Sequence record: SRR22947725_1575
Reading direction: 5' to 3' (one strand)
Length of the DNA stretch: 59,895 nucleotides
Positions 12,341-54,295 of this stretch are shown here, in pieces (the first letter of the stretch is position 1; every line of letters begins with the position of its first letter). Position numbers and translations under genes: made by a program. The notes under the pieces are model-generated. The model was not told the origin of the DNA. It did no database searches and saw only the letters and a program-made list of their open reading frames with translations.

Positions 12341-12783
12341 AAAGCCATAATCTAAATCAATCGGATTTATGATCAGTTCGGGATATCCAGCATGCAGCAA
12401 GTAGTCAGCACATCGCCAACCTGGATCGGTTGGTTGAAGGTTGGAGGTCGAAGTCTAGCAGGATAAAGCATTGTTGGCAGTAATGGCTGGTGAGTGCCGG
12501 CAATGCAGGACTCGCTGCATGTAAGCCTGTGTGCAAAGAGGGGATTTCCTTGGTGAATTCAAAGACTACAGATGTTGATATTTGGATCAACAGAAGCAAA
12601 TGAGCCTGTGAATTCCGACAAAAACGGCAGGCGTTATTTTATATTTAATTTGATTCATACAGACAAAGGGTAGATTTGCGAAGGAAATCAGAGGCGTCGT
12701 AAACGAATAGCAGCGGGAATTAGAGCTCAGAAAAACTTGTATTTTGAGGTGGATTGCATAGATATTGATGAAACTTCCAAACC

Positions 12784-21158: not shown

Positions 21159-21212
21159 AATTGTAAGCGTGTGGTTAAGTTGAAATTGATTGACTCCAAC
21201 TGATGTGATTGA

Positions 21213-21977: not shown

Positions 21978-22134
21978 GGGTGAATTCTGACACGATCCAT
22001 TCCCTCAAGTCAATGAACGCTTGATCTTGAATAGATATGCCCCAGGAACATTGCAGATCAAGCTGTTGAGGAGAAAACAGCGCCATTTGGTGTCGACCGC
22101 ATGAAGAAGCAAAGTAAGGGACGAGAAACAGCTT

Positions 22135-35995: not shown

Positions 35996-37216
35996 ATGTT
36001 GAAATTTATCCACCTGCTCACACTCACAGGGGCTTTCTTCCTGATCCCCATGACAGGCCTGCTTGCGCAGGGCGCCACTCAACACAAGGCCGAACTTATT
36101 TTCCCTCTGGAAACATGGCACAATCATGGTTCCTGCATCGTGGAGGCTTCCAATGGAGACCTGATTGTCTGCTGGTTCCATGGATCAGGGGAAAGGAAAT
36201 CGGATGACGTAAAGATCCTGGGCGCCCGCAAACCCAAGGGGGCCAAAACCTGGAGCAAACCTTTCTTGATGGCTGATACCCCTGAATTCCCCGACACCAA
36301 TTGCTGCATGATCATCGACCCTCAGGATCGCCTCTGGTTGCTCTGGCCAACGATTCAGGCCAATCTCTGGGAATCGGCGCTCATGAAATACAAGATCTCC
36401 TCGAGTTACACTCAAAAAGAAGGACCTCCTGAGTGGGATACCGAAAAAGTGTTGCACGTCAAACCGGGTGATGCATTTGCGGATGTGGTGAAAAAGAAAA
36501 CGGCCAACTACTTGAACAGTCAGCAATTGACACCCGGCATGATTGAATGGGCGCATGACAATTTCCGGCAGGCAGAGGACAAGCTCACGCGCCGCCTGGG
36601 ATGGTTCACGCGCGCACATCCTTACATCCTGGATGATGAACGCATGCTGGTGGGGCTTTACTCCGATGGATTTTCATTCTCGATGGTGGCCATCACCGAT
36701 GACTGGGGACAGTCGTGGCAGTTCAGCGAACCCATTGTTGGAGGCGGAAGCATTCAACCCAGTTTTGCCCGCCGCAAGGACGGTACACTGGTCACCTACA
36801 TGCGGGACAACGGCCCTCCCCCCAACCGTGTGCTGGTATCGGAATCCAAGGATGAAGGTGTCAGCTGGTCGATGGTGTACGATCACCCGCAACTCGCCAA
36901 TCCAGGGGCCGGGCTGGAATTGATGCAACTCAATGATGGACGATTCCTTGCGATTTACAATGATACCGAGGATGGGCGTCATCAGTTGGCTGTCTCCATT
37001 TCTGAGGATGAGGGGAAAACCTACACTCACACACGCCATCTGGAAAAACGCGCGCCGGGCGAGGGCTCATTCCATTACCCATCCATCATTCAGGCAAAGG
37101 ATGGAACTCTTCATTGCACCTACAGTTATTTCACACCCAACGGTCTTGACGGACGCGAAGGGAAGTCGATCAAGTATGCGACGTTCAACATCGATTGGGT
37201 CATGAATGGTGATTGA
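35996..37216 (+). CDS. Secreted sialidase-like (BNR/Asp-box) protein
   Basis: Signal peptide; HNHGSCIVE..NGDLIVCWF.GSGE; Asp-boxes TDDWGQSW, SKDEGVSW, SEDEGKTY; FHYPSIIQ. Confidence 0.85.
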   Translation: MLKFIHLLTLTGAFFLIPMTGLLAQGATQHKAELIFPLETWHNHGSCIVEASNGDLIVCWFHGSGERKSDDVKILGARKPKGAKTWSKPFLMADTPEFPDTNCCMIIDPQDRLWLLWPTIQANLWESALMKYKISSSYTQKEGPPEWDTEKVLHVKPGDAFADVVKKKTANYLNSQQLTPGMIEWAHDNFRQAEDKLTRRLGWFTRAHPYILDDERMLVGLYSDGFSFSMVAITDDWGQSWQFSEPIVGGGSIQPSFARRKDGTLVTYMRDNGPPPNRVLVSESKDEGVSWSMVYDHPQLANPGAGLELMQLNDGRFLAIYNDTEDGRHQLAVSISEDEGKTYTHTRHLEKRAPGEGSFHYPSIIQAKDGTLHCTYSYFTPNGLDGREGKSIKYATFNIDWVMNGD

Positions 37217-37293
37217 ATCGCCCCCCTGAGCCAGGAGAAAACCTGACTCATTTGGCATTGGTTTTGCTAACCAATGGTTCAAAAACAAATGTC

Positions 37294-40200
37294 ATGACTT
37301 CATTCCCGCATTTCAAAACGGCACTTCTCGCACTGTGCTGCATCCATTTCGGCTGGCACCCCTGCAAGCTCGAAGGCCAGACATTGCGTATCAATGAATG
37401 CATGGCAGCCAATTCGAATGGACTGCTTGATGAAGATGGAGATACGTCGGATTGGATTGAGATCTGGAATTATGGATCATCACCCGTGTCACTTGCTGGC
37501 CTGTACTTGAGCGACGACCCTCAATTGCCTGACCTGTGGCCGCTCCCTTCCATCCGTTTGGATGGCAATGAGCATCTCATTGTCTTTGCTTCCGGCAAGG
37601 ATCGCCGGTCGCCCGAGCATTCACTGCACTGCAATTTTGAATTGGATCGAAAAGGTGAATTCCTTTCACTGAATCAATTCATTGAAGGCGAATGGATGGA
37701 GCTCAGCGCATTCAATCCCTTCCCGCCCCAAAAACAGAATGTATCCTATGGGTATGTGGGAAATGCGGGTTCCATGAAGACAGCGTATTTTTTAATCCCC
37801 AGCCCCGGCACAAGGAACCGGGGTGAATCGGTATCTGGATTCGTCAAGGATACTCGTTTCAGCATGGACCGGGGTTATTATGATGCTCCATTCGACCTTA
37901 TCATCTCGACCGGCACCCCCGGAGCAACGCTCGCCTACACGACCGATGGCACTCTCCCCTCTCCGACCAATGGAACACAGGTCCTCCCCGAAAACACGAC
38001 AGAACCAAGCATTGCTCAGTTGAAGATCACCGATTCCACATTGCTGCGAGCCATGGCATACAAGGACACATATTCTCCCACCAATGTGGACACCCACTCC
38101 TATTTCTTTCATGGCTCCTTGTTGAAACAAGGAGACGAAGGCGAACCATTCGATCAATCGGTGCGCTGGGGGCACGCGGGGCCGGATTGGGAGATGGATC
38201 CGGAAATCGTCACCCATGCAAACCCTGAAATCAAACCTGCCAAAGAAGATTTCCTGAGACTGCCCACCCTTTCCATCGCAATGCATTTCAATGAAATGTT
38301 TGGTCGAGGGGGTATCTATATTGCTGGGCAAAGTGTTGAAAAGCAGGTATCCGCCGAGTGGCTCAATCCTACATCGGATCCGCAGGCTCCCAATAAAGTT
38401 CAGGGTTTTCAAAAAGACGCCACCCTGCAGATTGTCGGCGGGAGCAGTCCGTCGCGCTGGAAATCAGACAAGCTATCCATGCGCCTGAAATTTGATCAGG
38501 ACCTGAATTACCCTGTGTTTGGAGGGGATGCAACAGACCGCTTTGACACGTTGGTGATTGATGCTCGATTGAACAATGTGTGGCATTATGGAGGGGGTGT
38601 GGAACCTGTGGGCCAGCGAGAACGTGCACAATACGTACGCGATCAATACGCCGCCAATCTCCACAATGCCATGGGGGGAACCTCACCGCACGGCAGGCAT
38701 GCACATGTCATGATCAACGGAATTTACTGGGGCATCCACACGATCCACGAACGCCCGGACGATAATTTCACAGCCAGTTACCTGGGTGGTTCGAATGAGG
38801 ATTATGACTCAATCAAGCACCGTCCCAATGACGTACTTCAGGGAAGTTCGGATAATTACAATCAATTGCATGCTCTCGCTGGAAGGGATTTGTCGATCGA
38901 GGAAAACTACGCTGCGGTGAGTGCACTTTTGGATATCGATGATTTCATTGATTACATGCTCATGAATTATTACATCGGTAATGGTGACTGGGCACACCAC
39001 AACTGGTACGCCTCATTCAACCGCATCGATCCCGATGGAAGATGGCGTTTCCACAGTTGGGATGCGGAAAAAGGACTGCATGGCGTCAGCAACAATGTCA
39101 CCGGCAGAAACGATCGCGGTGGCCCCACCTTTCTTCAGCATCAGCTCATTCGCAATGAAGGCTACCGTTTTAGATTTGCAGACCGTGCCTATGATCAGTT
39201 GCGTCACGGGGTCTTGACCCCGCAGAGGACAGCCCAGATGTATCGTGAAATCACAGACCCCATCGACCTTCCGATTCGTCTGGAATCGGCACGCTGGGGA
39301 GACAATCAAAAGAGCCGACCCTACACTCGCCTGGATTGGATTGAGAATCGTGACTCACTTTTTGGACTTGCTGCCAACCGACAACTACCTACCCACGATT
39401 TCTTCAAACGCAGAAGCGAAATCGTTTTAAGTCAATTCAAGCAGCGCAACTGGTTACCCTTCATGGAACCTCCCGTCTTCAATCAACACGGCGGACACAT
39501 CCCGGGAGATTTCAAAATCGAAATTCAGCTGGCAAATCAGGGTTCCATCCTCTACACCCTGGATGGTTCGGACCCCATGCCTGCAGTTCAAAACACCCGT
39601 CAGACAACGTTCCATCTTGTCTCCGATTCACATGAAAAACATGCGATAATGCCAGAAGACAGCCGTATTGAAGACAATTGGATGCAGGTGAACTTTGATG
39701 ACTCAGACTGGCCCAGAGGAAACAAAGGTGCAGGATACGAAAACAGATCGGGTTATGAAGATTTCATTTCAAGCACCTTGGATTTCCATGATTCAGTCAA
39801 CCAAAGCGATACCGAAACGATCTACATGCGGGTTGAGTTCGAGGTGGAGGAGCAGACTCCATTTGACCGAATGGAATTAGGTCTGCGTTTTGACGACGGT
39901 TTCATCGCCTACCTGAATGGATTCGAAATCGCTCGGTCCAATGCCCGCGGCACCCCGGATACTCCTGCCGCATGGAATGCATCCGCGTCATCGAGCCACT
40001 CCGACGCCGAAGCCGTCGTTTTCCAATCTTTTGATGTCACTTCTTCTCTGAAACACCTCAAGCAAGGAACCAATGTACTGGCGATCCACGGATTGAATGT
40101 ATCGGCAACCAGCAGTGATTTCCTGATTTGGCCCGTGCTCAAGGCCAGTGTCATCGAGGAAGACCCACAGGCACCGACGAATGATCAGGTGATGACTTAC

Positions 40201-41226
40201 GCATCCCCCTTCACATTGACGCAATCCTCGACCATCAAGGCCAGGGTGAATCGAGCCGGTAGATGGTCCGCACTGCTGTCCGCGGATTTCATTGTTGATG
40301 CCATGCCGGTGACGGCAGAAAACATATCACTGTCCGCTATTCACTATCACCCAACAGCGCCTGTCACCTCTGAAATGGAAGCCGGTTTCCAGAATCGAAG
40401 AGACTTTGAATTCCTGGAACTTCATAACCCCTCTGCGCAGTCCGTTGACCTGAGAGGGCTGCGTTTTATCTCAGGTATCGATTTTGAATTCGATGCATCC
40501 GCGTTCATCCTTGAATTAAACCCCGGGAAATCCTTGATCATTGCATCCAATCAAGAAGCCTTTGAATCTCGTTTTGGAACGACCTGGAACATTGCCGGGA
40601 CTTTTCGCAAGGACACAAATCTGAACAATGGCGGTGAACGCATTGCGGCAATCAACAGCGCAGGTCAAATCGTTCTGGATGTGACCTACTCAGATCAGCC
40701 ACCCTGGCCCACAGCCCCGGACGGTCAAGGTTCATTCCTCACGCTTTCAAACCCTGATAAACCTGGCCTGGCCAGCGCATGGAATGCAGCGTCAGAGTCA
40801 GTAACCAGGGCACCTGCGGCGGCTCTCCAACCCTATCTCAAATGGCTGGAAAACCATTTCACGGCAGATGCATTGGACAGGCCCCTGATCACCGGATGGA
40901 CCGCTGACCCGGATCTCGATGGAATGAACAACCTGCTGGAATACTTCCACGGATCAGATCCCTCAAGGGCGATGCAATCTCCTCACGTTTTGAAGATCCA
41001 CAGGGATACAGCAGAAGGCGAAGCAAAGTGGCAGATTGAATTTTCAAAAGTTACCGAGTTGCCGGGTATTGAATGGAGCGTCGAACATTCAACGGACCTT
41101 CAGTCATGGACGGCACTTGGCGTACCTGCTGAAATGGTCACCGATCGTTTTCATCATTATTCATGGAATCAGCCGGCATCTGGTGCATCCAGGTTCTTTC
41201 GATTGAAACTCACCCTGCAGGAATAG
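37294..41226 (+). CDS. Secreted CotH-kinase / lamin-tail domain protein
   Basis: INECMAAN..DEDGDTSDWIEIWN; YTTDGT.P; YWGIHTIHER, NGDWAHHNWY, HSWDAE; second lamin-tail domain; DPDLDGMNNLLEY; ATG at 37294 preferred over TTG at 37213. Confidence 0.85.
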   Translation: MTSFPHFKTALLALCCIHFGWHPCKLEGQTLRINECMAANSNGLLDEDGDTSDWIEIWNYGSSPVSLAGLYLSDDPQLPDLWPLPSIRLDGNEHLIVFASGKDRRSPEHSLHCNFELDRKGEFLSLNQFIEGEWMELSAFNPFPPQKQNVSYGYVGNAGSMKTAYFLIPSPGTRNRGESVSGFVKDTRFSMDRGYYDAPFDLIISTGTPGATLAYTTDGTLPSPTNGTQVLPENTTEPSIAQLKITDSTLLRAMAYKDTYSPTNVDTHSYFFHGSLLKQGDEGEPFDQSVRWGHAGPDWEMDPEIVTHANPEIKPAKEDFLRLPTLSIAMHFNEMFGRGGIYIAGQSVEKQVSAEWLNPTSDPQAPNKVQGFQKDATLQIVGGSSPSRWKSDKLSMRLKFDQDLNYPVFGGDATDRFDTLVIDARLNNVWHYGGGVEPVGQRERAQYVRDQYAANLHNAMGGTSPHGRHAHVMINGIYWGIHTIHERPDDNFTASYLGGSNEDYDSIKHRPNDVLQGSSDNYNQLHALAGRDLSIEENYAAVSALLDIDDFIDYMLMNYYIGNGDWAHHNWYASFNRIDPDGRWRFHSWDAEKGLHGVSNNVTGRNDRGGPTFLQHQLIRNEGYRFRFADRAYDQLRHGVLTPQRTAQMYREITDPIDLPIRLESARWGDNQKSRPYTRLDWIENRDSLFGLAANRQLPTHDFFKRRSEIVLSQFKQRNWLPFMEPPVFNQHGGHIPGDFKIEIQLANQGSILYTLDGSDPMPAVQNTRQTTFHLVSDSHEKHAIMPEDSRIEDNWMQVNFDDSDWPRGNKGAGYENRSGYEDFISSTLDFHDSVNQSDTETIYMRVEFEVEEQTPFDRMELGLRFDDGFIAYLNGFEIARSNARGTPDTPAAWNASASSSHSDAEAVVFQSFDVTSSLKHLKQGTNVLAIHGLNVSATSSDFLIWPVLKASVIEEDPQAPTNDQVMTYASPFTLTQSSTIKARVNRAGRWSALLSADFIVDAMPVTAENISLSAIHYHPTAPVTSEMEAGFQNRRDFEFLELHNPSAQSVDLRGLRFISGIDFEFDASAFILELNPGKSLIIASNQEAFESRFGTTWNIAGTFRKDTNLNNGGERIAAINSAGQIVLDVTYSDQPPWPTAPDGQGSFLTLSNPDKPGLASAWNAASESVTRAPAAALQPYLKWLENHFTADALDRPLITGWTADPDLDGMNNLLEYFHGSDPSRAMQSPHVLKIHRDTAEGEAKWQIEFSKVTELPGIEWSVEHSTDLQSWTALGVPAEMVTDRFHHYSWNQPASGASRFFRLKLTLQE

Positions 41227-41347
41227 TTCCTTGAAGGTGATGGCCGCCCTCTCGAATCGTTGCAACTGGCATGTCTGATTCGCATCCGTTGGCGTCGGTT
41301 GCCGTTCCAAAACCCAATTCCATCCGCTGAATAGAATGCCCAACACT

Positions 41348-42733
41348 TCAACGGGCGAGTAGTTTCCGCATGGCGGGAAGAAGCACATCCTCGACTTCAG
41401 GAGCCACCTTGGAGGCACGGGGACTGTCTTCGTAACCGCCCTGACCATACTGGGATTTTGCACAGATATAACCTGTCGAATAGTCGCCGTAGGCAGCCAT
41501 AGCAACAAATGTTTCAGGGCGCATGGATTGCGCAGCAAGTTGATATGGAATGGTCAGTTCTCCGGGCATGAACAGGACGCGCGCTTCCCCCAGGCGCAGG
41601 CAATGCAGATCAATGGCTTCGCCGTTTTGACAGCGACGCAGCCACGTCAAATCCTTGGCGACATAAGTCAAATCCATCGGATCCTCCTCTACATCAGCCA
41701 GACGAGCCAACAATCGTGTTTCATCCAAGTGCGAAGCGACGGGAAGTACGACCGGCAAGGTCTTCCAGCCAAAAGCATCATCAGATGCCGGGTGTTTGAC
41801 CGTCGCCTTGAGCGCGGAAGCCATTGCCTCGGCCAATCGTGTGGCCAGAGCCTGACGATTCTCCGGTGCACCGTCGTTATACTTGCCAGCGCCAATGTCG
41901 CCGCCAGCACCATTGAAATGGATATGGGGGATGCCATTCAATGTGGCCTCTCGCAACTGGCGCGCCATGCCCGGAAAATCCGGATGCGCTTTACCTGTCA
42001 GATAATAACTTTGCGGATGCGTTGCGTAATAGGTCAACACCGCCAGCAAGGAGTCCCCATTCCAGAAGCTGATGGATTTCAGGAAGGGATCGATTTGGCC
42101 TTCCGGTTCGGCGCGCAAAGCAGGATCTTTGCAAGCGGTATAACGCGTCGCGCGGACCTTGCCATTCGGCCCGAGAATACGCCGATTGGACGCGATCCGG
42201 TCGACCATCGCCTGCCCCAGACCAAAATGGGAAACCGCCATGGCGTCTCGCTTGGCCTGCGCCGCCGCCTGGGAGACACGCGCGACGGCGCGGCGTGCAA
42301 ATTCTGGATCGAACATCAGGCCGTCCAACCCCAAAGGTTCCATCAGGCGCTCCACACTGAAATCACATCGAGGGGCGTCGTGCTGGTGCAGGGTGTGCAC
42401 GGTCACTCTCGATTTCGAGGTTCCAATCGCATCGGCGAGCGACTGACGCCAGAAGTCATGTCCTTCATTGCTGATTCCGATCCAGTCCACCGCGCACAAA
42501 ACAATCGGATCCCCCGCTCCGGTCAGGACAATACCACGCGCTGACAGCGGCATGCCAATGGCCTGGCATCGATTGTAAGCAAGTGGGCTTCCAATCGGCG
42601 GCGAGACATCAGCCTTGAACACGCCAACACGCACATCAGCGACACAGATCACAGGCAAACAGAGAAGAGCTATTGCTACAACCGTATGATCTAATCGGTA
42701 GACTCGGTCAATAAACTTTAAAATTCGTTGCAT
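41348..42733 (-). CDS. Secreted hypothetical protein, neutral/alkaline ceramidase-like (PVC type)
   Basis: DVSPPIG, PLSARGIVL, HTLHQHDAP, NRR, IDP, YATHP, GAGGDI, PGE, YGDY..GYI pattern. Confidence 0.65.
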   Translation of the reverse strand: MQRILKFIDRVYRLDHTVVAIALLCLPVICVADVRVGVFKADVSPPIGSPLAYNRCQAIGMPLSARGIVLTGAGDPIVLCAVDWIGISNEGHDFWRQSLADAIGTSKSRVTVHTLHQHDAPRCDFSVERLMEPLGLDGLMFDPEFARRAVARVSQAAAQAKRDAMAVSHFGLGQAMVDRIASNRRILGPNGKVRATRYTACKDPALRAEPEGQIDPFLKSISFWNGDSLLAVLTYYATHPQSYYLTGKAHPDFPGMARQLREATLNGIPHIHFNGAGGDIGAGKYNDGAPENRQALATRLAEAMASALKATVKHPASDDAFGWKTLPVVLPVASHLDETRLLARLADVEEDPMDLTYVAKDLTWLRRCQNGEAIDLHCLRLGEARVLFMPGELTIPYQLAAQSMRPETFVAMAAYGDYSTGYICAKSQYGQGGYEDSPRASKVAPEVEDVLLPAMRKLLAR

Positions 42734-43053
42734 GGCTTTTTTATATCAGGGAATGGTGAGATCCTACTGCATGCATCATCCTGTTACCATCGGAATCATC
42801 GTCGTCGTTCACCAACCAGCGCGGGTAAATCAAGGGGTTCAACCTGATGTTGATCCTTTGGACTTTCCTGCAGCAACCCGCACACCAATGGCCATGTTTG
42901 GAGCGGACACTTTCACCGCCACCGGATGAGAGTCAGAAATCTTGCACGCTTGGAATGCCAGCAAGAAAGGAAGTAGGAGTCATTCCCCTGCGTGACAAGC
43001 CTGTCAAAGAGAGTGAGGAAAAATCCTTACCTTAACTGTCGTTTCAGACTGAT

Positions 43054-43863
43054 TCACGGAAGAACGACCCTGAATAAAAGTTGTTTGAAATCATTTTGAA
43101 TGGGTTCCATGAAAGTGACGGGCATCTCACCCATGGTCACTTCTCTGAGGGCATTCCATTGCAAACCACTACTTGAAGTTTGCACGATGACCTTCTGGCC
43201 AGCTACCCCGTCAATTTCAAAAGCGAACTGGCCCTCGATCAATCTGGGGTTGGAAAGCGTCGGCTGCAGCGCGGGCAATGAAGCAGGTTCAATGGAATCG
43301 ATCTTTTCTCGAAGGGACTTGAGATTGACACGGTGTGATTGTGCGTAGAGCACTTCCCATGCATCATGGGAGGTGGATCCTTCAACTCCATTCAGCAAAA
43401 CGAAATCGGAATCATTCGCACTTTCACCCCGGCTGGGTGAAAAAAACTGGTGCAAAGCCACATGATTTGAATCATCAAGCACCACCTCGAGCCCGGTCGT
43501 TTCAGCAAAGAAGAGCGACCCTCCACTGGACACACCGCGATCATCCTTTTCGAGACCTATGATGTGAACAGGAATGCCGTGTGGATTGCCACCGCGTTCA
43601 TCGTAATACTCCTGAATCTCTCGCTCAGCGACCGCTGAGTTATTTCGGCAAATGCCTCACCAATAAAAAAAGAAATCAAGCAGTACGATCGAGCCACGAT
43701 AATCATGAAGCCGAATGGAATCTCCGGAAATCACATCCGTTAATTCAAAGTCCTCGGCAATATCACCCACTTTTTTGAGGGTTGATTGAGTATGGGCTTC
43801 GACCATGCTCCACAAAAGGAAGGCTGAAAACAACGACATGCTAAAGGTAATGGTCTTTTTCAT
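43054..43863 (-). CDS. Secreted thioredoxin-fold (TlpA/redoxin) selenoprotein, U69-x-x-C72, with C-terminal secretion-type module; 269 aa with UGA read as Sec
   Basis: Track ORFs 43657-43869 and 43054-43533 are one frame broken only by TGA at 43657-43659: KVGDIAEDFELTD...IVLLDFFFYW-U-GICRNNSAVAEREIQEYYDERGGNPHGIPVHIIG; aligns with LDFFAHWCAPC...IAEYYLEQNGNKHGIPVDVVAV of the upstream gene; SECIS-like hairpin follows. Confidence 0.85.
43624..43659 (-). promoter_or_regulatory. Putative bacterial SECIS element
   Basis: mRNA UGA-ggcauuugccgaaauaa-CUCAGC-GGUC-GCUGAG: 6-bp perfect stem, 4-nt G-led loop starting 23 nt after the UGA. Confidence 0.7.
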
Positions 43864-43903
43864 GATCAATAATGGAGAATCAACTGTTTTTGCTTGGTGT
43901 TGT

Positions 43904-45529
43904 TTAAAACGTCATATCAAACGCTGCCTGAAACAAGCCCCAATTTCGGCTTTGATACAGGTCTTCAAAGAAAGGGGCTTCGACCTCCGCATCCTGATAT
44001 CGTGTCCAATAGGGACCTGCACTCAATCGCAGACTTGACCGCTCGCCCAACCAGCGAACCCCGAACCCTGCGTGATAGGTGTCCAGACCAGGAGGCGCAT
44101 TGGAAGAGGTCAGTGAATTTTGTATTTCTCCAGTATCGTGGTAGTAACGGGCAAACAAACTGATGATCCAAGATGCCCCAAGGTCTTGCTCCAGGGTAAG
44201 CCCGGCAAACCAGGCGTCAAAGGAGGGGTTTTCCTTCGTCCAACCCGCTTGAGCCCGGAGCACCGTTTGCTCTCTGACGGCGATGTTCAGGAACTCTTGA
44301 GCGCTCCAGCGAAATTGGCGTTCACTGGTATCGGTCAGGCGAAGTTCCATCAAGGACCGCATGCAAGAATTAATGACATTTTCGGACGCCAAACGAAGCA
44401 TGTGAGAATCAATCCGGTCCAGTCCAAGAATCGTAGTGCGTCCGAATTCGGCACTGGGTGCGATGCGGTCTCGAAAGAACCCATATCCTGCCTCCAGATA
44501 TCCAGACGCAGGCAGATATTCCCAACGCACCTGAGCGGCCAACTGAATTCCACGAGGGTCGATATGTGGATAATCTTCAAAAAAGGGCAAGTCTCCGATC
44601 TGCTGATAGTATTCATGCAGCCAGAAGGCTCGATGGCTTTGAAAACCTTCATAATAACCGAACTGCCCCTTCAAAGTGATCACCTCATTCAATTCCCGTG
44701 AGAAGCGAAATTGTGTCAGCACACGTTCGGCATGAGTTTGCACGGGCGTGAAAAACGGATCAGGCGAACGCATTTCAAGTGCGAATGTCTGCAGGCCCAA
44801 TCCGAAATCCCATTTCGTCTTACCGTATGTGTGACCGTAGCTTAAATCCCATTGAGTCAATTGATAGTCATCACTGATCAAAGCCTCTCCACTGGCTTCT
44901 GATTTCCTTTCCACAGACCTGGCACTCGTTTTGATCCCTGATTCGGATTGACCTTCCGATAGGACCGGAATGTTTGTGACAGTCTCACTGGAACCCGTGA
45001 TTGAGTCAATGACTGCACGCAGTTGAGAAACACCCTCGAAGCCAGCTTTCTGGTAAACAACTTTCAGGTCGCCACCGGAATGTGTGCCATCCAGCACCAC
45101 GAGCAATGGGATGCTTTCGGCTTTGAATTCAGAGAGAAGTGTGCCATTAAAATCGTCTATGACTTTTTTCAGACCTGTTCGCCTGATAAAAAGATCAGTA
45201 CGCTTTGGACTTGAGGCTTCGACATTGACGGCCACCACATCCACTGGAATACCATGCTTGTTCCCATTTTGTTCGAGGTAGTATTCTGCGATGTCTTTTT
45301 CAATCAACGGAGACACTCGAAGGCATGGCGCACACCAGTGTGCAAAAAAATCCAGCACAAGGATGCGACCTTGAAATGATTCGGAAGAAAACGTTTCCTC
45401 GGAATCAGCCGTTCGATATTCCCGTTGAAAACCAGAGAAAGCGGATGCGTTCAAGTTCATTGAGAAAAAGAGACACACCAAGGGTTTTGCCAACCACCTC
45501 AAGCTTGCGTTCAAACAATTCATTCGCAT
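43904..45529 (-). CDS. TlpA-like thioredoxin (WCAPC) fused to an outer-membrane beta-barrel (DUF3570-like by context)
   Basis: Signal peptide; LVLDFFAHWCAPC, VVAVNVE, SIP (cis-Pro); C-terminal region of alternating aromatic beta-strands ending WGLFQAAFDMTF (terminal Phe). Confidence 0.8.
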   Translation of the reverse strand: MRMNCLNASLRWLAKPLVCLFFSMNLNASAFSGFQREYRTADSEETFSSESFQGRILVLDFFAHWCAPCLRVSPLIEKDIAEYYLEQNGNKHGIPVDVVAVNVEASSPKRTDLFIRRTGLKKVIDDFNGTLLSEFKAESIPLLVVLDGTHSGGDLKVVYQKAGFEGVSQLRAVIDSITGSSETVTNIPVLSEGQSESGIKTSARSVERKSEASGEALISDDYQLTQWDLSYGHTYGKTKWDFGLGLQTFALEMRSPDPFFTPVQTHAERVLTQFRFSRELNEVITLKGQFGYYEGFQSHRAFWLHEYYQQIGDLPFFEDYPHIDPRGIQLAAQVRWEYLPASGYLEAGYGFFRDRIAPSAEFGRTTILGLDRIDSHMLRLASENVINSCMRSLMELRLTDTSERQFRWSAQEFLNIAVREQTVLRAQAGWTKENPSFDAWFAGLTLEQDLGASWIISLFARYYHDTGEIQNSLTSSNAPPGLDTYHAGFGVRWLGERSSLRLSAGPYWTRYQDAEVEAPFFEDLYQSRNWGLFQAAFDMTF

Positions 45530-45538
45530 GCGGTTTGA

Positions 45539-45781
45539 TTACTGGCAGGCGGTGCAACCTGCGGCCGGAGCTCCACCCGAACCCGCAGTCCCGGGCTCTA
45601 TCTGAGTCAGCACATTCGATTGATAAGCAAAGACCGGCGAATCTGAGAACGTCATGTTGGGCTTCGACACCAGGCCCTGATCATTCAATGGAATCGCCTT
45701 GCAACCCACCAAGGAGCAACAGGTCCATGCCATCGCCACAGACCAAGCTATTTTTCTATGTATGCGGTTATGCATGCGCAC
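45539..45781 (-). CDS. DUF4266-like small lipoprotein with C-terminal CxxC
   Basis: Lipobox LVGC; L.KPNMTF; Gly-rich tail EPGTAGSGGAPAAGCTACQ; start GTG 45781 or ATG 45775. Confidence 0.8.
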   Translation of the reverse strand: MRMHNRIHRKIAWSVAMAWTCCSLVGCKAIPLNDQGLVSKPNMTFSDSPVFAYQSNVLTQIEPGTAGSGGAPAAGCTACQ

Positions 45782-45973: not shown

Positions 45974-48472
45974 ATGCCCGCCATGACACCCTGCCTCAAA
46001 CCATTGCTTATCCTCTTGGTCTGCCTGACTGGGTGTGGCGTGTTTAAAAGCCTTCATGGAGGCGAGCCGAATCCACACTGGGCCTTCCAACCCATACAAA
46101 AACCCAAACCGCCTTCAAACGATTCGCCAGCGATCGATTCCTTCGTGCAAGCCAGACTTGCCGGATCGGATCTCGCGATACAGGAGGAGGCATCTCCTCG
46201 GACCTTGTTGCGAAGGCTTTACTTCGACATGACGGGCTTGCCCCCTTCTTTCGAAGAAACTCAGGCCTTTTCGAAAGCACCTGACCGAGAGATTCCCTAC
46301 CAGAAAGCAGTCGAATCGATTCTGGCAAGCCCGAGGTACGGAGAACGATGGGCGCAGCATTGGCTGGATCTTGTTCGGTATGCCGATACGCATGGATACG
46401 AGGTCAACACGGAGCGAAAGAACGCCTGGCCGTACCGAGACTACGTCATTCATGCCTTAAACGCAGATAAACCTTACGATCAATTTGTATTCGAACAATT
46501 GGCAGGTGATTCCACGGGCCAGGATGCCGCCACCGGCTTTCTCGTCGCCGCACCGGCCCTGTTGCCCGGCCAAATAGGAAAGGATGAAGCTTCCAAGCGC
46601 CTTGCCCGCCAGGATGCACTGGATGAAATCATTGTCAGCACAGGAGAAACCTTTCTCGGAATCAGCATCGGATGCGCACGCTGTCATGATCACAAGTTCG
46701 ACCCTGTTTCCGCAGAGAATTATTATGCCTTTCAGGCTTTCTTTGCCGGCGTTGAATACGGGGATCGCCCTATCAAAAACCAAGCTGTTGAAGACCAGAA
46801 ATCAAAAGATCTGGCCAAGGTGGAACAACACTTGAAAGCGATCGAGCATCAACTGATTCTTTTGGAACCGCTCGCCAGTATGGATGCGTCTGATCATTCA
46901 CCGCGACGAGCCCCCATCGATCATCTTGGAAATGTGGAGCGCTTTGAATCGATCGATGCACGCTTCATTCGTTTTACGGTTTTGGGAACAGAGGGCAACA
47001 ACCGCCACGAACCATGCTTGGATGAATTGGAGATTTTTCGAGCGGGTGCCCGAAGTATCAATGTGGCACATTCATCGCTGGGGGTTAAGACATCTTCTTC
47101 CGGTAATTATTCAGAATCGGGCATCCACCAGCTCAAGCACATCAACGAAGGACTTTACGGGAACAGTCATAGCTGGATTTCGAATGAAAAAGGCGGTGGT
47201 TGGGTTCAATTTGAGTTACCTCGCATCGAGAGGATTGACCGCATCATCTGGTCACGAGATCGTACAGGACAATTCAAGGACAGGCTTCCGATCGAGTATC
47301 GCATTGAAATCGCCGACGAATCAGGCCAATGGCAAACCATCGCCGGTTCATGGGATCGCATTCCGATTGAGCATTCAGAGGTTGTCAATATTGCCACCAC
47401 CACTCCTGACAGACTGCAGGCCCGCAAGGCGCTTCTCGACAAACAGAAACAGTTGATTTCCAGACGAAACGCACTGGAACAAGCGCCGATGATTTACGGA
47501 GGGATTTTCCGCAAACCCGAGATCACCCATGTCCTTCATCGAGGTGATCCAGAACAACCCGGACAGCAGGTCACCCCTGGTCTTTCACCTCCTCTGGGCG
47601 ATCTTGAGTTGAGCCCGCAACACAGTGGAACGGAACGTCGAGTCGCATTGGCCCGTTGGATCTCCAGCCCAGCCAACCCCCTGACGGCACGGGTGATGGT
47701 CAACCGTATCTGGCAGTTTCATTTCGGGCGAGGCCTGGTAGACACCCCGAGCGATTTCGGGTTGAACGGAGCTCCCCCCTCCCATCCGGCACTTCTGAAT
47801 TGGTTGGCCGCGGAGTTCATGGAAAGCGGTTGGTCCATCAAACACATGCATCGACTCATCCTTCATTCCCGAACCTACCGGCAGTCAAGCCGCGTTCATC
47901 AGGCAGGTTTGGCAAAAGATGCAGACATGCGTCTGCTTTGGCGATTTCCGGGGAGACGGCTGGAAGGCGAAGCTATTCGTGACTCCCTGTTGCAAGTCAG
48001 CGGGAAGCTCAATCTCGAAATGGCGGGGCCGGGCTTTGATTTTTTCAAGAAGCGAGGGGGGCTGGATGGTTACCCTCCTGTCAGTCAATTCGGGGCTCAA
48101 GGAATGAAGCGAATGATTTATGCGCACAAGGTTCGCATGGAGCGCGTGCCCGTGTTCGGGGCCTTTGACTGCCCGGATGCTGGCCAGCCCATGTCCCGCA
48201 GAAACCAATCCACCACTGCCATTCAGGCGTTGAACTTATTCAACAGCCCGTTTGTTCAGGAGCAATCGAAGCATCTGGAAAAGCGAGTCGTGTCTCATTG
48301 CCCGCCGGATGCTTCGACCGCAGATCAAATCGTGATGTCATTCCAAATCACACTGGGCCGCCAGCCGACCCAAAGCGAACTCAAGGGAGCCCGCGAACTG
48401 ATGGATCAAGAAAGTTTGGCAACTCTTTGTCGAGTGCTCATTAACAGCAGCGAATTTGTTTATCTGCCATGA
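45974..48472 (+). CDS. DUF1549/DUF1553 (PSCyt2/PSD1) protein with inserted F5/8C-like domain
   Basis: [86 protein letters not shown]. Confidence 0.9.
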
Positions 48473-49929
48473 AGTATTCCTTTCATAACAGCAACCCACT
48501 GATGAATAGACGGCATTTCCTGGGGTCCACTGCGACCGGGCTGGGTGCGGTGGCGCTCACTCAGCTTCTTTCCAATGACGGACTGCTGGCGGATCATCGG
48601 GTTCCCATAGATCCTGCTCGCCCGCACAAGGCACGCAAGCCCCATTTCCCAGCCAAGGCGAAGAATGTCCTCGTATTGTTCTGTGCAGGTGCATGCAGTC
48701 AGTTGGAAACATGGGATTACAAACCCGATTTAATCCGACTGGATGGAACCCCGATGCCAGGTGGACCTTCGGTGACTTTCCAAGGGCCTTCGGGCAATCT
48801 GGCACGTCCCCAATACAAGTTCAGACCTCGAGGCCAGACGGGAAAGATGGTCTCTGACATGTTCCCCCATCTTGCCGCGCGGACCGACGAGCTTGCATTT
48901 GTCCATAGCCTGACCAGCAAAAGCAACACACATGGTCCTGCTGAGAATTTCCTGTCAACGGGTTTTGCTCTGGACGGGTTTCCCAGCATCGGTGCCTGGG
49001 TGACTTACGCGCTTGGAACAGAAAATGAAAACCTGCCCGCATTTGTCGCCATCCCGGATCCACGGGGAATCCCTCAGGCCAGCATCAACAATTGGGGCCC
49101 CGGATTCCTGCCCGCAGAATTCCAGGGTACCTCGTTCAACGCACGCAATCCGATTCAGAACCTGAACACGCCAGGCAATAGAGCCCCGGAAAGCGACGAG
49201 GCCGCACGTCGCTTCTTGAGACAACTCCAGGAAGAACACCTCGCAACAAATCCTGGTGACAGCCAGTTGTCCGCACGCATTGCCAGCTATGAATTAGCGG
49301 CTCGCATGCAGTTGAGTGTGCCGGAAATCATGGACCTCTCTTCCGAACCAGCTCATTTACTCAAATCCTATGGCGCGGATGACACGGGTAACCAGGTCAA
49401 GGCAGACTTTGCCAAAAACTGCATCCTGGCCAGACGGCTGATTGAAAAAGGAGTGCGCTTTGTTCAATTGTTCAATGGCGCCTACGCATCGGGAGGAGCT
49501 TTGAATTGGGACGGGCACAATCAGCTCAAAGCACAATACGACGTCCATGCAGAAATCTTCGACCAACCAGCCGCCGCCTTGCTGGAAGATCTCAAGCAGC
49601 GCGGACTTCTGCAGGATACGCTGGTAGTGTGGTGCACTGAGTTCGGTCGAATGCCGATGTTTCAGAAAGGAGCACAAGGAAGGGATCACAATCCCAACGG
49701 ATTCACCGCCTGGATGACTGGAGCAGGCGTTCAACCCGGTGTCAGTTACGGGGCCACCGACGCACTTGGTTATGAAGCCGTCGAAAACATCAGTTCCATC
49801 CACGACCTCAATGCCACGATCCTCCACCTGCTTGGCCTCGATCACGAAACCCTCACCTACCGACACAACGGGCTGGAAAGAAGACTGACCGATGTCCACG
49901 GCTATGTGCTCGAAAAAATGCTGTCTTGA
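48469..49929 (+). CDS. DUF1501 domain protein (Tat-exported)
   Basis: [66 protein letters not shown]. Confidence 0.92.
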
Positions 49930-50023
49930 TCAAAAAAACACTTGAAGAGCATCCAGTAAATTGGGTGATTAAATCCTGATTCGAGTACGAAGAATACTTG
50001 CGAAGAAACGTATTAGGCATAGA

Positions 50024-52741
50024 ATGGCTTCCAATTACCTCATGAAAACCTGCACCCTTATTTTGAATCGATCCAAGCTGTGGTTCGCGGGTAGCGTTGT
50101 TCTCGCCATTGCATTGTCCAAGATAAGTGCGTCTGAAACTTTGTGGTCATTGAAACCATTGGTCCGCCCTGCTCTTCCACAACCATCGATCACCAACGAA
50201 TCAAATAACCCCATCGATTGGTTCGTCGATCACATGCAAGTGCAACAAGGATTGAAGCCCTCACCCCGAGCAAGCCATCGCCAACTCCTGAGAAGGGTCT
50301 TCAATGATGTCTGGGGATTACCTCCCCTGTATGAAGATCTGGAATGGTTGAACGAAACGGGCATGGAGAAAGGTTGGGCACAGTTGGTGGACAGGTTACT
50401 TGGAAGCCCTCATTACGGGGAACGCTGGGCGCGACACTGGATGGACGTCATCCATTTTGCTGAGACGCACGGGCATGACGAGGATGCACCGAGAGAGCAT
50501 GCCTGGCCTTATCGTGACTATTTGATCCGCTCCCTCAACAACGACAAACCCTATGCCCAATTTGCTCAGGAACAGATTGCAGGGGATGCGATGCACCCGG
50601 GCAATGCAGAATCATTGATTGGTACCGGTTTTCTCGCAGCGGGGCCCTGGGATGAAAGCTCACAAATGGGCATTCAGGATGGAACACTTGATAAAAAAGT
50701 CGCTCAATACCTCGACCGTGACGACATGATCACAACCACGATGTCCACATTTCTCGGGCTCACGGTCCATTGTGCCAGATGCCATGATCACAAGTTTGAT
50801 CCGATATCCATTGAAGACTACTACTCTTTACAAGCGGTATTTGCAGGAGTGGATCGCAACAATCGACCGTTTGACCGCGACAATGACATCCACCAAAAAC
50901 GACAGACCTTATTGTCTCAAAAGACCGACTTGCTTGCGGACAGATACCCTGAAAGTGAATTATTGAATCAGCATGCGAAGACCCGTGTCGATCGTTGGAC
51001 TGAATCACGTCAGAGCGTGTTGGATCGGTGGACCTTCAGCGTTCCAGACTTCACAGAGGAAACCGCCTCAAAAGCCTCCTTCCAACCCAAGGACCACTCA
51101 CTCTTTTTCCCAAAACCCGCGAGTGATCAAGGCCTGCTTGCCTGGACATTCACCTCCCCTTACACAAAACCTACAGGCATTCAACTGGAGGTGCTCCCGG
51201 ACGACCGTCTACCCAATCAAGGACCCGGCTGGGCATCCAACGGCAATTTCAGATTGAGTGAATTCAAGGTGTTCTCTCGCCCCGCCCCCACGGCCCCCTG
51301 GGTTCAAGTCCAATTACAGCAGCCTCAAAACGATTTCAGTGAGCATACCACTTCGGTTCGATATTTGATCGATAACGACGACAAGACCACCTGGGGCATC
51401 CTCCCTCAAACCGGTACGGCTCATCGCTGCTTTTTCGAAATAAGCCCGGAGACGCTTATTCAGGAAGGAGGCCAGATCAAAATTGAACTGCAGCACCATC
51501 ACAAGGAGGCCCTCTGGATCGGTCGCTGTCGAGTTTCATTGACCGATGCAGCAAGGCAGGACATCCAACCATTCCTTGCGGCTGAACTCGACAAGGCATT
51601 TTCAACGCCAGAGGATCAGCGCACAAGAGTCCAACAACTCACACTTTCACGTCACGCCACTCTGGAACATTGGAACCAAAAGTTGAATGAGCTTCCTCCT
51701 TCATCGCAGGTTTATGCAGCAACCAGTTTCTTTAATTCGGCAGGTAATTTCAAACCTTCACTGGGTCCCCGCGAAGTTCGCAAACTAGTACGTGGAGACA
51801 TCCAGTCCCCAAGAGAAATCATGCTTCCTGGTGCCTTGTCACAGCTGAAGGACATCCCATGGAATCCAGGTGAGAGAGAACTGAGTCAGGAGAGCGAACG
51901 TCGACTCACTCTGGCAGAATGGATCAGTCACCCTCGCAACGGATTATTCTGGCGAACCATGGCAAACCGGATCTGGCAACATCATTTCGGTTCTCCCCTG
52001 GCGGGCACTCCCAATGACCTGGGGCATAGCGGGCAAGCCCCGACCCATCCTGAGCTTCTGGACTGGTTGGCCTGCGAGCTTCGTGACTCGAATGGTTCGC
52101 TGAAGCACCTTCATCGACTTATTCTCAACAGCAGCACCTATCAGCAAAGTGCCACATTCAGAGACGCAGCAGCCAAGATCGATGCGAGTAATCAGTACTA
52201 CTGGCGCATGTCACCAAGACGCCTGGATGCTGAATCATTTCGAGACACACTCCTGGCTTTATCGCAGGATCTGGCAACCGAGATGGGAGGCCCCTCTGTC
52301 AAACAATTCAACATGCGTCCAGGCATTCATGTGACGCCCATTGTCGACTACAAAGGCTTTGCCCCTGGCGAGTCCGCGATGACACGGCGCAGTATCTATC
52401 GCTTTTTGTTCCGCACCCTTCCAGATCCATTCATGCAAGCAATGGATTGTCCGGATGCATCCAGCTGGACCCCAAAACGGACCGTATCCATGGGACCATT
52501 GCAGGCACTGGCACTCATGAACGATGAATTCGTGATTCATATGGGGCAACGACTGTCCGAGACACTGAACAAAGATCACGGGAAGGTTCCCTCAAGTATC
52601 ACCGCTCTTTTCCGCAAGGCTTTGTTGAGGGATCCCACCCCTGAGGAAATATTACTTTTTTCTGATTACACAAGCCAGCACAGCCTGGCAAATGCGTGTC
52701 GTTTTTTATTCAACAGCAATGCGTTCATGTTTATCGAATGA
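50024..52741 (+). CDS. DUF1549/DUF1553 (PSCyt2/PSD1) protein
   Basis: [69 protein letters not shown]. Confidence 0.9.
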   Translation: MASNYLMKTCTLILNRSKLWFAGSVVLAIALSKISASETLWSLKPLVRPALPQPSITNESNNPIDWFVDHMQVQQGLKPSPRASHRQLLRRVFNDVWGLPPLYEDLEWLNETGMEKGWAQLVDRLLGSPHYGERWARHWMDVIHFAETHGHDEDAPREHAWPYRDYLIRSLNNDKPYAQFAQEQIAGDAMHPGNAESLIGTGFLAAGPWDESSQMGIQDGTLDKKVAQYLDRDDMITTTMSTFLGLTVHCARCHDHKFDPISIEDYYSLQAVFAGVDRNNRPFDRDNDIHQKRQTLLSQKTDLLADRYPESELLNQHAKTRVDRWTESRQSVLDRWTFSVPDFTEETASKASFQPKDHSLFFPKPASDQGLLAWTFTSPYTKPTGIQLEVLPDDRLPNQGPGWASNGNFRLSEFKVFSRPAPTAPWVQVQLQQPQNDFSEHTTSVRYLIDNDDKTTWGILPQTGTAHRCFFEISPETLIQEGGQIKIELQHHHKEALWIGRCRVSLTDAARQDIQPFLAAELDKAFSTPEDQRTRVQQLTLSRHATLEHWNQKLNELPPSSQVYAATSFFNSAGNFKPSLGPREVRKLVRGDIQSPREIMLPGALSQLKDIPWNPGERELSQESERRLTLAEWISHPRNGLFWRTMANRIWQHHFGSPLAGTPNDLGHSGQAPTHPELLDWLACELRDSNGSLKHLHRLILNSSTYQQSATFRDAAAKIDASNQYYWRMSPRRLDAESFRDTLLALSQDLATEMGGPSVKQFNMRPGIHVTPIVDYKGFAPGESAMTRRSIYRFLFRTLPDPFMQAMDCPDASSWTPKRTVSMGPLQALALMNDEFVIHMGQRLSETLNKDHGKVPSSITALFRKALLRDPTPEEILLFSDYTSQHSLANACRFLFNSNAFMFIE

Positions 52742-54156
52742 GTATTCCAAAAGCCATGCAGCGACGTGATTTCCTCAATACCCTGGGGGGAGGTTTTGGT
52801 GGCTTGGCCCTGAACAGCCTGTTGGCTGAGGAAGCCACTCAACCCCATATTGGTGATTACGTTCACCACAGACCCCGCATCAAGCGGGTAGTTCAATTAT
52901 TCATGAATGGTGGTGTAAGCCCCATGGATACCTTTGACTACAAACCTGCGTTGAAACCTCTGCACGGTCAGCGATTCAATCCAGGCGAGGGACAATTGGT
53001 GGAGTCTGTGACCAATTCACCCGGATTCAAGGTCATGGACAGTCCCTTTGAATTCAAGCAGCATGGGCAATGCGGGCAATGGGTAAGTGATGTCTTTCCA
53101 CACATGAGCGGTATTGTGGATGACTTGTCGTTCCTCATGTCCATGCAATCCACCAGCAACGTGCACGGCGTTGCGAGTTTCATGCAAAACACCGGTTTCT
53201 CGCTGCCGGGATTTCCATGTGCAGGTTCGTGGGTCAGTTATGCACTGGGTAAACTGAACCGCAATCTGCCGGAATTCGTAGTCATGCCTGACCCCAGGGG
53301 TCTGCCTTACAATAATCAGGGCAATTTCTCCTCAGGCTTTTTACCAGCAAAACACACGGGAACCGTCATTCAACCTTCAAGCGAGACTCCGGTTCCCTTT
53401 TTGAGCCCCCCTCCAACGATCAAGGAAATCACCGATCAAAGCGAATCGGATGGTTTGAGTTTATTGAAAAAGTTGAATGACTCACATCTCGCTGCATCCG
53501 GTGGAGATCTTCGAATGGAGTCGAGGATGCAATCCTACGAGGACGCTGCAAGATTGCAGTTACTGGCTCCTGAACTTTTTGATTTGAACCGTGAGAGCGC
53601 CTCCGTGAAATCCCTCTACGGTTTGGAGGCAGATGAAACACGTGACTTCGGCACACGCTGTCTGATTGCGAGACGCATGCTCGAGCGCGATGTACGCTTC
53701 ATACAAATATGGAGCGGAGCTGGAGGTCCAAAGAACAATTGGGACAACCACTCCAACATTCATACGGAGCTACCATGGATTGCAAGACAGGTTGACCAAC
53801 CCATCACAGGTTTCATCAAGGATTTAAAATCAACGGGGCTACTTGACGACACCCTGGTCATCTGGACCACGGAATTTGGGCGCATGCCTTTTACTCAAGG
53901 CACTTCAGGTCGTGACCACAACGGTGGCACCTTTGTTTCCTGGTTGGCAGGAGGAGGCATTCGTTCTGGAACCCGTATCGGGCAAAGTGATCCATGGGGT
54001 TGGAAAACAGAATCCCCGATCTGGTGTTACGATCTGCATGCTACTATGTTGCACTTGCTTGGCATTGACCACGAACGTTTGACTTATCGTCATAATGGAC
54101 TGGACAGACGCCTCACCGACGTGCACGGGCAAGTATTGAAAAGCATCCTGGCATAG
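52738..54156 (+). CDS. DUF1501 domain protein (Tat-exported)
   Basis: [54 protein letters not shown] overlap start at 52738. Confidence 0.92.
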   Translation: MSIPKAMQRRDFLNTLGGGFGGLALNSLLAEEATQPHIGDYVHHRPRIKRVVQLFMNGGVSPMDTFDYKPALKPLHGQRFNPGEGQLVESVTNSPGFKVMDSPFEFKQHGQCGQWVSDVFPHMSGIVDDLSFLMSMQSTSNVHGVASFMQNTGFSLPGFPCAGSWVSYALGKLNRNLPEFVVMPDPRGLPYNNQGNFSSGFLPAKHTGTVIQPSSETPVPFLSPPPTIKEITDQSESDGLSLLKKLNDSHLAASGGDLRMESRMQSYEDAARLQLLAPELFDLNRESASVKSLYGLEADETRDFGTRCLIARRMLERDVRFIQIWSGAGGPKNNWDNHSNIHTELPWIARQVDQPITGFIKDLKSTGLLDDTLVIWTTEFGRMPFTQGTSGRDHNGGTFVSWLAGGGIRSGTRIGQSDPWGWKTESPIWCYDLHATMLHLLGIDHERLTYRHNGLDRRLTDVHGQVLKSILA

Positions 54157-54295
54157 TTGATTGATCAGAGGTCACTCCATTCCTCTATCCATATTGGGGC
54201 TGAAACCTCATTCGACACACTTCATTCCATCAGCTGTCACAAAAATTGCTGATCCTTCAATTGCTTCTCCGGCCATCTTCCATCAACATGTAACC

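Follow-up and report, generated by a model that had tools for sequence, protein, structure and literature searches.

ResA of Bacillus subtilis, TlpA and CcmG/DsbE are extracytoplasmic thiol-disulfide reductases of cytochrome maturation. Selenocysteine (Sec) counterparts of such proteins have been described. UxxC selenoproteins of the TlpA-like and peroxiredoxin (Prx)-like kinds have been catalogued since 2005, and the family tables of three surveys list a ‘Prx-like thiol:disulfide oxidoreductase’ (PF00578, UxxC) together with a ‘Thiol:disulfide interchange protein’, DsbA-like and DsbG-like proteins and a ‘UGC-containing TlpA family’ (PMC13188914, PMC9312934, PMC1088965). The catalogue entries also include a ‘Thiol-disulfide isomerase-like protein’ family (cd02966 / PF13905, UxxC), and the Global Ocean Sampling (GOS) paper described predicted secreted selenoproteins, including predicted secreted proteases. 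Here we analyse a 59,895-nucleotide (nt) stretch of DNA from sequence record SRR22947725_1575 (the window, meaning this whole stretch) and a gene on its minus strand at 43054-43863. Very probably this is one gene, from a marine Verrucomicrobiota bacterium, that encodes an exported selenoprotein of 269 residues, with an in-frame UGA read as Sec. A preliminary description of this DNA had proposed the same core reading (one gene, UGA as Sec at the nucleophile of a WCxxC motif, a predicted signal peptide and a C-terminal module), and our analysis supports it. That description had also called the exported location unusual for a selenoprotein. Because the catalogues already hold UxxC members of normally extracytoplasmic families (DsbA-like, DsbG-like and TlpA-family) as well as predicted secreted proteins, the location is not unusual, and an exported UxxC thioredoxin-fold selenoprotein is an already known kind.

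We compared the protein with the catalogued families as their tables describe them. It shares with the TlpA/redoxin UxxC families a thioredoxin fold, Sec at the first position of UxxC, widespread Cys homologues, a selenocysteine insertion sequence (SECIS) hairpin within the coding sequence, a marine origin and splitting by gene callers. The UGIC protein has both PF00578 and UxxC, the two features of the ‘Prx-like’ family, to which it is likened by description and not by a representative sequence. Its sole Pfam match was AhpC-TSA (PF00578; 28.8 bits vs a cut-off of 26; residues 32-86). With the ‘Thiol-disulfide isomerase-like’ family, also compared by description only, it shares UxxC and not PF13905 (Thioredoxin_8), which was not reported for the selenoprotein at E ≤ 0.01 and does match its upstream paralogue. 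Compared with the catalogued UxxC families, this clade adds a C-terminal beta-sandwich, a Ser at the presumed cis-Pro position and a three-gene module, none of which is mentioned in the table passages on those families. The searched parts of PMC13188914 and PMC9312934 do not mention the phylum Verrucomicrobiota, and we found no paper dedicated to selenoproteins of this phylum among the literature matches listed (supplements outside the scope). The protein resembles ResA, TlpA and CcmG/DsbE in its fold, its W-C/U-x-x-C centre and its predicted N-terminal export or anchor signal. It differs from them in having Sec for the nucleophilic Cys, Ser at the presumed cis-Pro position, an extra C-terminal domain and low NCBIfam scores.

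The minus-strand frame from 43863 to 43057 comprises 269 codons, from an ATG at 43863 to a terminal TGA at 43056-43054. Its sole internal stop is the TGA of codon 69 (43657-43659, minus strand). Translation with TGA as Sec gave a product that begins MKKTITFSMSLFSAFLLWSMVEA-HTQS..., continues through ...DFFFYW-U69-G-I-C72-RNN... and ends ...LLFRVVLP. The resolving Cys of the U-G-I-C motif, C72 (TGC, 43648-43650, minus strand), is the only Cys of the product and lies in an invariant column. We observed full-length frames of this kind in 12 homologous loci. The list of open reading frames (ORFs) made with translation table 11 cuts the frame in two: 43657-43869 (70 residues, from an upstream TTG start, ending ...LLDFFFYW) and 43054-43533 (159 residues, GTG start). 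The 41 codons between the two ORFs (43656-43534) are free of stops. Frame translation thus bore out what had been described beforehand, namely two ORFs in one frame broken by a TGA only, 41 open codons between them and a 269-residue read-through product with U69/C72; the coordinates were right, and the gene strand is minus. The accompanying remark that gene callers split such genes also held, as proteins of this clade appear either in pieces or mistranslated with Trp for the TGA.

We assessed the conservation of the TGA in databases of proteins and contigs. Among 5.8 billion proteins searched there were 13 matches, and 12 of them fell in the Sec clade. None of these 12 clade proteins was a correct full-length call (0/12). 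Ten clade matches were incomplete: they measured 159-185 residues, were 52-99% identical and began at varied Met/Val codons after the TGA. P0002, a database protein of 337 residues (92% identical), had been translated with TGA as Trp; it reads YWWGIC and overruns the true end by 68 residues. Metagenome and genome contigs were scanned as well and yielded 16 loci, 12 of which read through the site in frame. TGA stood at the same codon in 13/13 in-frame contigs (the window and these 12 loci), which are not all independent and represent ~8 distinct lineages. Protein identity ranged from 48 to 97%, the protein was conserved on both sides of the site, and the shared context was DFFFYW-TGA-(G/S)(I/V/T)-C. 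Two loci (L029, L036) end before the TGA site and were counted neither way, as was the frame-shifted L037, and another (L041) is an unrelated Dehalococcoidia thioredoxin with WCDPC.

We observed that the TGA lies opposite an invariant catalytic Cys. The columns of residues 69 and 72 both hold Cys throughout the 46 homologues aligned with the query. The closest full-length relative, P0014 (281 residues, 52% identity), reads FFFYW-C-SIC and is a Cys orthologue. A HMMER search returned 1,787 relatives at E ≤ 0.001, 285 of them at E ≤ 1e-10, and 134 of the 150 best representatives carried [WFYTS]CxxC. Among the remaining 16, nine were Sec-type proteins split into an N- or C-terminal piece and at least four had CxxC after a residue outside this pattern. 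The upstream gene, in which a WCAPC motif and homology on both sides of the TGA had been noted, gave a BLASTP alignment of 159 residues with the read-through product (E = 5e-21, 35% identity), in which its Cys66 faces U69. The claim that the UGA occupies the place of the nucleophilic Cys of WCxxC is therefore borne out by the 46-homologue alignment, by P0014 and by Cys66 of the paralogue. We built a quick maximum-likelihood tree of 68 rows, in which P0014 and the eight Sec sequences formed one clade (SH-aLRT, an approximate likelihood ratio test, 100) on a long branch (1.32 changes per column) nested among Cys proteins. This nesting suggests that Sec was gained within a Cys family. The placement of P0014 within the Sec clade was unsettled in the quick tree; its line either kept Cys or lost Sec again.

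We measured selection on the part of the gene after the TGA. Over codons 70-269, the ratio of non-synonymous to synonymous substitution (dN/dS) against four close relatives was 0.14, 0.15, 0.19 and 0.22 (Nei-Gojobori). Against L040 (65% identical), the proportion of non-synonymous differences (pN) was 0.176 downstream of the TGA and 0.269 upstream. These low values indicate that the part after the TGA is translated and under selection. Four further public marine runs, two of them metatranscriptome libraries, yielded contigs covering 43657-43659 in 4/4 cases, and we did not observe a difference at the site among the differences listed. A contig of 3,241 nt from an RNA library spans 43003-44104, that is, across the TGA and into the upstream gene. 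The preliminary description had predicted TGA in some relatives and a Cys codon in others, and had named a sequencing error at 43657-43659 and relaxed selection downstream as possible objections. The 13/13 contigs with TGA and the Cys of P0014 agree with the first point, the public runs speak against an error, and the dN/dS values contradict relaxed selection.

A SECIS-like hairpin (CUCAGC-GGUC-GCUGAG, 43624-43639, minus strand) starts 17 nt after the UGA, and its apical loop lies 23 nt from the UGA. Its 6-bp stem, 4-nt loop starting GG, 23-nt spacing and minimum free energy (MFE) of ≤ -7.5 agree with all four constraints quoted for the bacterial SECIS consensus in PMC13188914. The hairpin was part of the MFE fold in 4/4 orthologues tested (-10.4 to -13.8 kcal/mol per 48 nt), and the RNAalifold consensus contains it as well. 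All 48 stem cells across 8 distinct sequences were paired, compared to 29-52% in slid controls. Four of the six stem pairs never vary, one alternates between G-C and G-U, and one changes from A-U to G-C in locus L031, where this compensatory change arises via two synonymous changes. The nucleotides of the hairpin were conserved at synonymous sites.

We searched for the Sec machinery in three genomes. The first, G001, is a fragmented metagenome-assembled genome (MAG; 83% complete) that belongs to the same species by 96-97% DNA identity. It contains a tRNA-Sec (65.4 bits; ARAGORN call SeC(tca)) and a SelD above its cut-off (398.6 bits). The window region 39851-45748 falls between contigs of G001, and a protein search of G001 gave only distant thioredoxins. 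The other two are G002, a complete chromosome that carries homologue L038, and G003, which carries homologue L040; the machinery search there covered tRNA-Sec and SelB. Each has a tRNA-Sec (61.9 bits, SeC(tca)) and a full SelB (302 and 299 bits, respectively; cut-off 242). Of the four components that had been listed earlier as a check (selA, selB, selD and tRNA-Sec), tRNA-Sec and SelD were thus found in G001 and full SelB in G002 and G003, and the SelA and SelB of G001 were present as fragments only. Separately, we observed that the SelD of G001 (L024 1441-2484, contig C371) is itself a selenoprotein, in which an in-frame TGA gives ...HCAGUAAK....

We next describe the predicted protein. Residues 1-23 (43795-43863, minus strand) form a predicted signal peptide of the Sec secretion type, with MKK, a hydrophobic core and VEA|HT at its end, and every full-length homologue has a comparable hydrophobic N-terminal stretch. 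Residues ~30-192 (43288-43776, minus strand) form a predicted ResA/TlpA-like thioredoxin-fold domain, as indicated by AlphaFold2 (AF2), Foldseek and Pfam. The AF2 model (47 sequences) had a predicted local distance difference test score (pLDDT) of 92.2, with lower values in the N-terminal helix 3-21. In this model U69 lies just ahead of helix 70-89, and W-U-G-I-C stands at the start of helix 1, in a fold of the cd02966 type that has a central insert and an N-terminal extension. The top Foldseek match in the PDB was ResA (1su9_B; E = 3.8e-9, TM-score on target 0.81), and other top matches were DsbE (3gl3) and CcmG (2b1k), likewise with TM-scores on target of ~0.8, and further thiol-disulfide oxidoreductases. 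Residues ~200-269 (43057-43266, minus strand) form a predicted C-terminal beta-sandwich of six strands (AF2 strands 202-267, block pLDDT 86-96) that is conserved across the Sec clade. The C-terminal 68 residues had no Pfam match at E ≤ 1 and no NCBIfam match. An extra C-terminal module had been noted beforehand and is present in the model; its label as a ‘surface-type module’ goes beyond what we found, a confidently predicted small beta-sandwich that matches no family.

These features are consistent with the following mechanism. The UGA of codon 69 would be decoded as Sec by SelB and Sec-tRNA(Sec), recruited by the in-gene hairpin 17 nt downstream, and the terminal TGA, which has no such hairpin, would terminate translation. 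The signal peptide would direct export to the periplasm or cell envelope. There, the selenolate of U69 would attack a substrate disulfide or another oxidised sulfur, C72 would resolve the intermediate to give a selenenyl-sulfide, and an upstream reductant would recycle the enzyme. This is the usual mechanism of the thioredoxin fold, and by family knowledge it is the likely one here.

Several points weigh against the reading of this gene as an exported, UGA-decoding thiol-disulfide oxidoreductase. The evidence for selenium insertion is at the level of sequence, from which export, the redox reaction and any partner are likewise inferred. The function as a thiol-disulfide oxidoreductase is assigned by analogy only, and the export signal was read from the N-terminus by eye and not by a predictor. 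The machinery was seen in G001, a MAG of the same species, and in the more distant G002 and G003, not in the assembly of the window. In G001, SelA was partial at a contig end (131 bits) and SelB was in two pieces (155.5 and 41 bits), all below the family cut-offs. The hairpin has points against it as well. The 76-nt region folded no better than shuffles (z = +0.86), 48-nt pieces reached only z = -0.8 to -1.4, and the level of covariation was matched by 55/500 shuffles, with a double change in one pair only. Its stem also doubles as code for the conserved residues S-A-V-A/V-E, and a Rfam scan of 43500-43720 at E ≤ 10 gave no SECIS family and only chance snoRNA and miRNA matches. The comparison with the contigs of public runs leaves 56 lesser differences outside those listed, and contigs from RNA libraries are no proof of transcription because DNA can occur in such libraries. 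In contig L037 (~2165-2175; ~3x coverage by the contig name) the TGA is present, and a run of T6 instead of T7 just upstream of TGG-TGA shifts the frame. We attribute the shift to a homopolymer error, but the allele could also be truly broken.

Two further points concern the family and the active site. NCBIfam scores were far below cut-off for ResA (34.3 vs 170), StoA (17.5 vs 210) and TlpA (15.8 vs 230), and no selenoprotein model matched in the same scan. Because of these scores, the protein is better described as a relative within the superfamily than as a named ResA, TlpA, StoA or DsbE protein. The Sec clade also lacks the near-universal Pro of the family at the presumed cis-Pro position. 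In this column 96% of 45 Cys homologues have Pro, and 12/12 clade sequences and P0014 have Ser152; the column directly precedes strand 153-158 of the AF2 model. We take it to be the cis-Pro of the thioredoxin fold from the motif spacing of ResA/TlpA, not from structural superposition. In a PDB sequence search with the Cys orthologue, the alignments stopped short of the cis-Pro region and left the column unconfirmed.

These residues bear on the alternative that survives best, that is, a real selenoprotein that is not a disulfide reductase. The clade would then be a neofunctionalised branch, for example a reductase of peroxide, sulfenate or other small substrates, or a handler of metals or metalloids, that uses U69/C72 together with the Arg and His residues of the clade. 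The clade never varies at H134, H138, F141, R145, E147 and R178 (residues 134-178, ~43330-43464, minus strand), positions that the wider family does not conserve. Together with Ser152, they may reflect a remodelled active site, and it is because of them that there is room for a changed reaction. The long branch of the clade and P0014, and AhpC-TSA as the sole Pfam match, point the same way. Against this stand the UxxC motif and the ResA-like fold, which are typical of thiol-disulfide exchangers, the neighbouring thiol-redox proteins and the lack of a PxxxTxxC peroxiredoxin motif in the sequence. The clade residues are also placed in the sequence and not in the coordinates of the model. We consider this alternative unlikely, while giving it some weight, and retain the reading as a thiol-disulfide oxidoreductase.

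The UGA could also act as a plain stop, giving two products: a 68-residue exported peptide and a downstream ORF made from an internal start. Sec insertion in bacteria always competes with termination, which fits some such outcome, and there is a promoter-like match inside the gene (43568-43540), of a type no commoner than in shuffles. This explanation is very improbable. The 41 codons from the TGA to the GTG are stop-free and encode protein that is strongly conserved in all homologues. The called start codons vary between homologues (fragments begin at differing Met or Val residues), which suggests that the downstream piece is not an independent conserved gene. In the AF2 model neither half is a complete thioredoxin fold, and the downstream half would miss both the signal peptide and the active site.

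Another possibility is that the TGA arose by a mistake in sequencing or assembly, or by a nonsense mutation of recent date, and that the locus is a pseudogene, a broken Cys-type thioredoxin gene. The splitting of the locus by gene callers and the frameshift beside the site in the low-coverage contig L037 would fit this. It is hard to reconcile with a TGA that recurs in 13/13 separately assembled contigs down to 48% protein identity, with the low dN/dS downstream, with the contigs of the 4/4 other runs and with synonymous-site conservation in the hairpin, and we regard it as extremely improbable. The probability of a reassignment of UGA to an ordinary amino acid (Trp or Gly), which would make residue 69 a Trp rather than Sec, is close to nil: Verrucomicrobiota are among the phyla with reported UGA-to-Trp lineages (PMC13462651) and P0002 was called in this way, but TGA is used more often than any other ordinary stop in the window (it ends 20/37 frames of ≥200 codons between stops, all six frames) and ends this gene at a conserved C-terminus in 13/13 loci, which excludes a general reassignment, and furthermore TGA as Trp gives P0002 an unconserved 68-residue tail, the site lies opposite a catalytic Cys and not a Trp, and the relatives have a dedicated tRNA-Sec(tca), with a normal tRNA-Trp(cca) also in G001 (L005).

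The selenoprotein gene comes third and last in a conserved module of three genes on one strand, with a presumed role in the envelope. The first gene (45539-45781, minus strand) encodes a small putative lipoprotein with the lipobox LVG-C27 and the ending G-C76-T-A-C79-Q. It was present in 9/9 loci long enough to show it and had no Pfam or NCBIfam match. The second gene (43904-45529, minus strand) lies 40 nt from the selenoprotein gene and encodes 541 residues: a signal peptide, a Cys-type ResA-like domain (WCAPC), a linker and an outer-membrane-type beta-barrel. It carries ...LVLDFFAHWCAPC..., including DFFAHW-C-A-P-C, and by alignment its thioredoxin domain is a paralogue of the redox domain of the selenoprotein. 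In the AF2 model of this protein (33 sequences, pLDDT 84), residues 181-203 form the linker, which is disordered, and long antiparallel strands build the barrel at 207-540; FadL and OmpG were the best PDB matches. The barrel part had no Pfam (E ≤ 1) or NCBIfam match, and the ESM Atlas gave only generic outer-membrane-barrel leads for it, below recognition level. Its family comprises 51 relatives, either fused to a thioredoxin domain or alone. We observed the thioredoxin-barrel gene directly upstream of the selenoprotein gene in 11/12 loci (tblastn); the twelfth, L028, is too short, and its upstream frame shows the same C-terminus. The 541-residue protein ends ...AAFDMTF, and the genes at L040 4093-5961 and L038 4032-5896 are likewise thioredoxin-barrel fusions.

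A promoter-like match at 45923-45896 and a weak terminator-like match at 42989-42975 would fit a three-gene operon; the counts in the promoter and terminator scan were at or below shuffle expectation, and such matches at chance frequency are not evidence. Downstream of the selenoprotein gene lies a 461-residue gene (41348-42733, minus strand) that matched no Pfam or NCBIfam family. Of the relatives, only the closest ones (L026, L027, L030) carry it; the more distant syntenic loci do not. We did not find cytochrome-maturation genes among the 19 window proteins scanned. The most likely job of the module would be a step in an envelope thiol-redox relay.

The layout of the module resembles the DsbD-associated clusters of DUF4266, DUF3570, thioredoxin-like and ApbE genes (Meheust et al. 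2021, PMC8238504). The ESM Atlas placed DUF3570 clusters among the look-alikes of the barrel (score 0.93, rank 18), which is a lead only. Compared with the clusters in that description, the small protein here ends in CxxC and not CxC, one thioredoxin is fused to a barrel, and the other is the selenoprotein. At E ≤ 1, none of the module proteins matched DUF3570 or DUF4266 in Pfam. The [S/T]GA[S/T] flavinylation motif was absent from the neighbour and the lipoprotein and occurred in 1/33 barrel-family rows, and ApbE genes were found elsewhere in the genomes, not beside the module. For these reasons we do not assign the module to the DUF4266/DUF3570 system. The C-terminal part of Mycobacterium tuberculosis DipZ (2hyx, 5cyy; Foldseek ranks 28 and 48) also has a TlpA-like domain beside a second domain, which is presumably a beta-sandwich. 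DipZ superposes poorly on the selenoprotein (root-mean-square deviation 21, TM-score 0.3) and contains no Sec.

Other parts of the window were also surveyed. A crude scan for further UGA-split redox genes gave only the selenoprotein gene as credible. A same-frame ORF pair split by TGA at 20283-22004 (minus strand) consists of two unrelated genes, one for a UVR-motif protein and the other for a 3-hydroxyisobutyrate-dehydrogenase-like protein, with no recoding. Three secreted proteins of the window share a tail of ~70 residues (...W..., then (F/Y)(F/Y)R(I/L/V) near the C-terminus), encoded at 8771-12454 (minus), 37213-41226 (plus) and 43057-43266 (minus, the end of the selenoprotein gene), and two of these proteins are paralogues with CotH and a lamin-tail domain. 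Many Cys homologues of the selenoprotein end in the same type of tail, which has no Pfam or NCBIfam match. In Verrucomicrobiota, this shared tail may serve as a domain for sorting or anchoring. The region 45974-55678 (plus strand) holds two consecutive PSCyt2/PSD1 (DUF1549/DUF1553) and DUF1501 gene pairs followed by a sulfatase, and further upstream of those pairs are a DUF3472/DUF5077 protein, a BNR sialidase-like protein and a sulfate permease. This region is ordinary for marine polysaccharide degraders of the Planctomycetota-Verrucomicrobiota.

Two features alone might go beyond the ordinary, the presumed remodelling of the active site and the conservation of the envelope module. On the most far-reaching view, the gain of Sec, the change of cis-Pro to Ser, the invariant Arg and His residues near the active site and the fixed module would mark, in marine Verrucomicrobiota, a novel selenium-dependent redox relay extending to the outer membrane, with a reaction other than disulfide exchange and a beta-sandwich that docks the selenoprotein to the barrel or the surface; we consider this quite unlikely. 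Selenoprotein biology is unchanged in kind by this clade. There is an annotation error worth fixing, as every protein collection that we searched files its proteins in pieces or with the TGA translated as Trp, and no NCBIfam model rescues them. The finding adds a well-supported clade of predicted exported selenoproteins of marine Verrucomicrobiota to the thioredoxin-fold catalogue. With a clean pair of Sec and Cys orthologues and a fixed gene neighbourhood, it makes the benefit of Sec to an envelope thiol oxidoreductase experimentally approachable.

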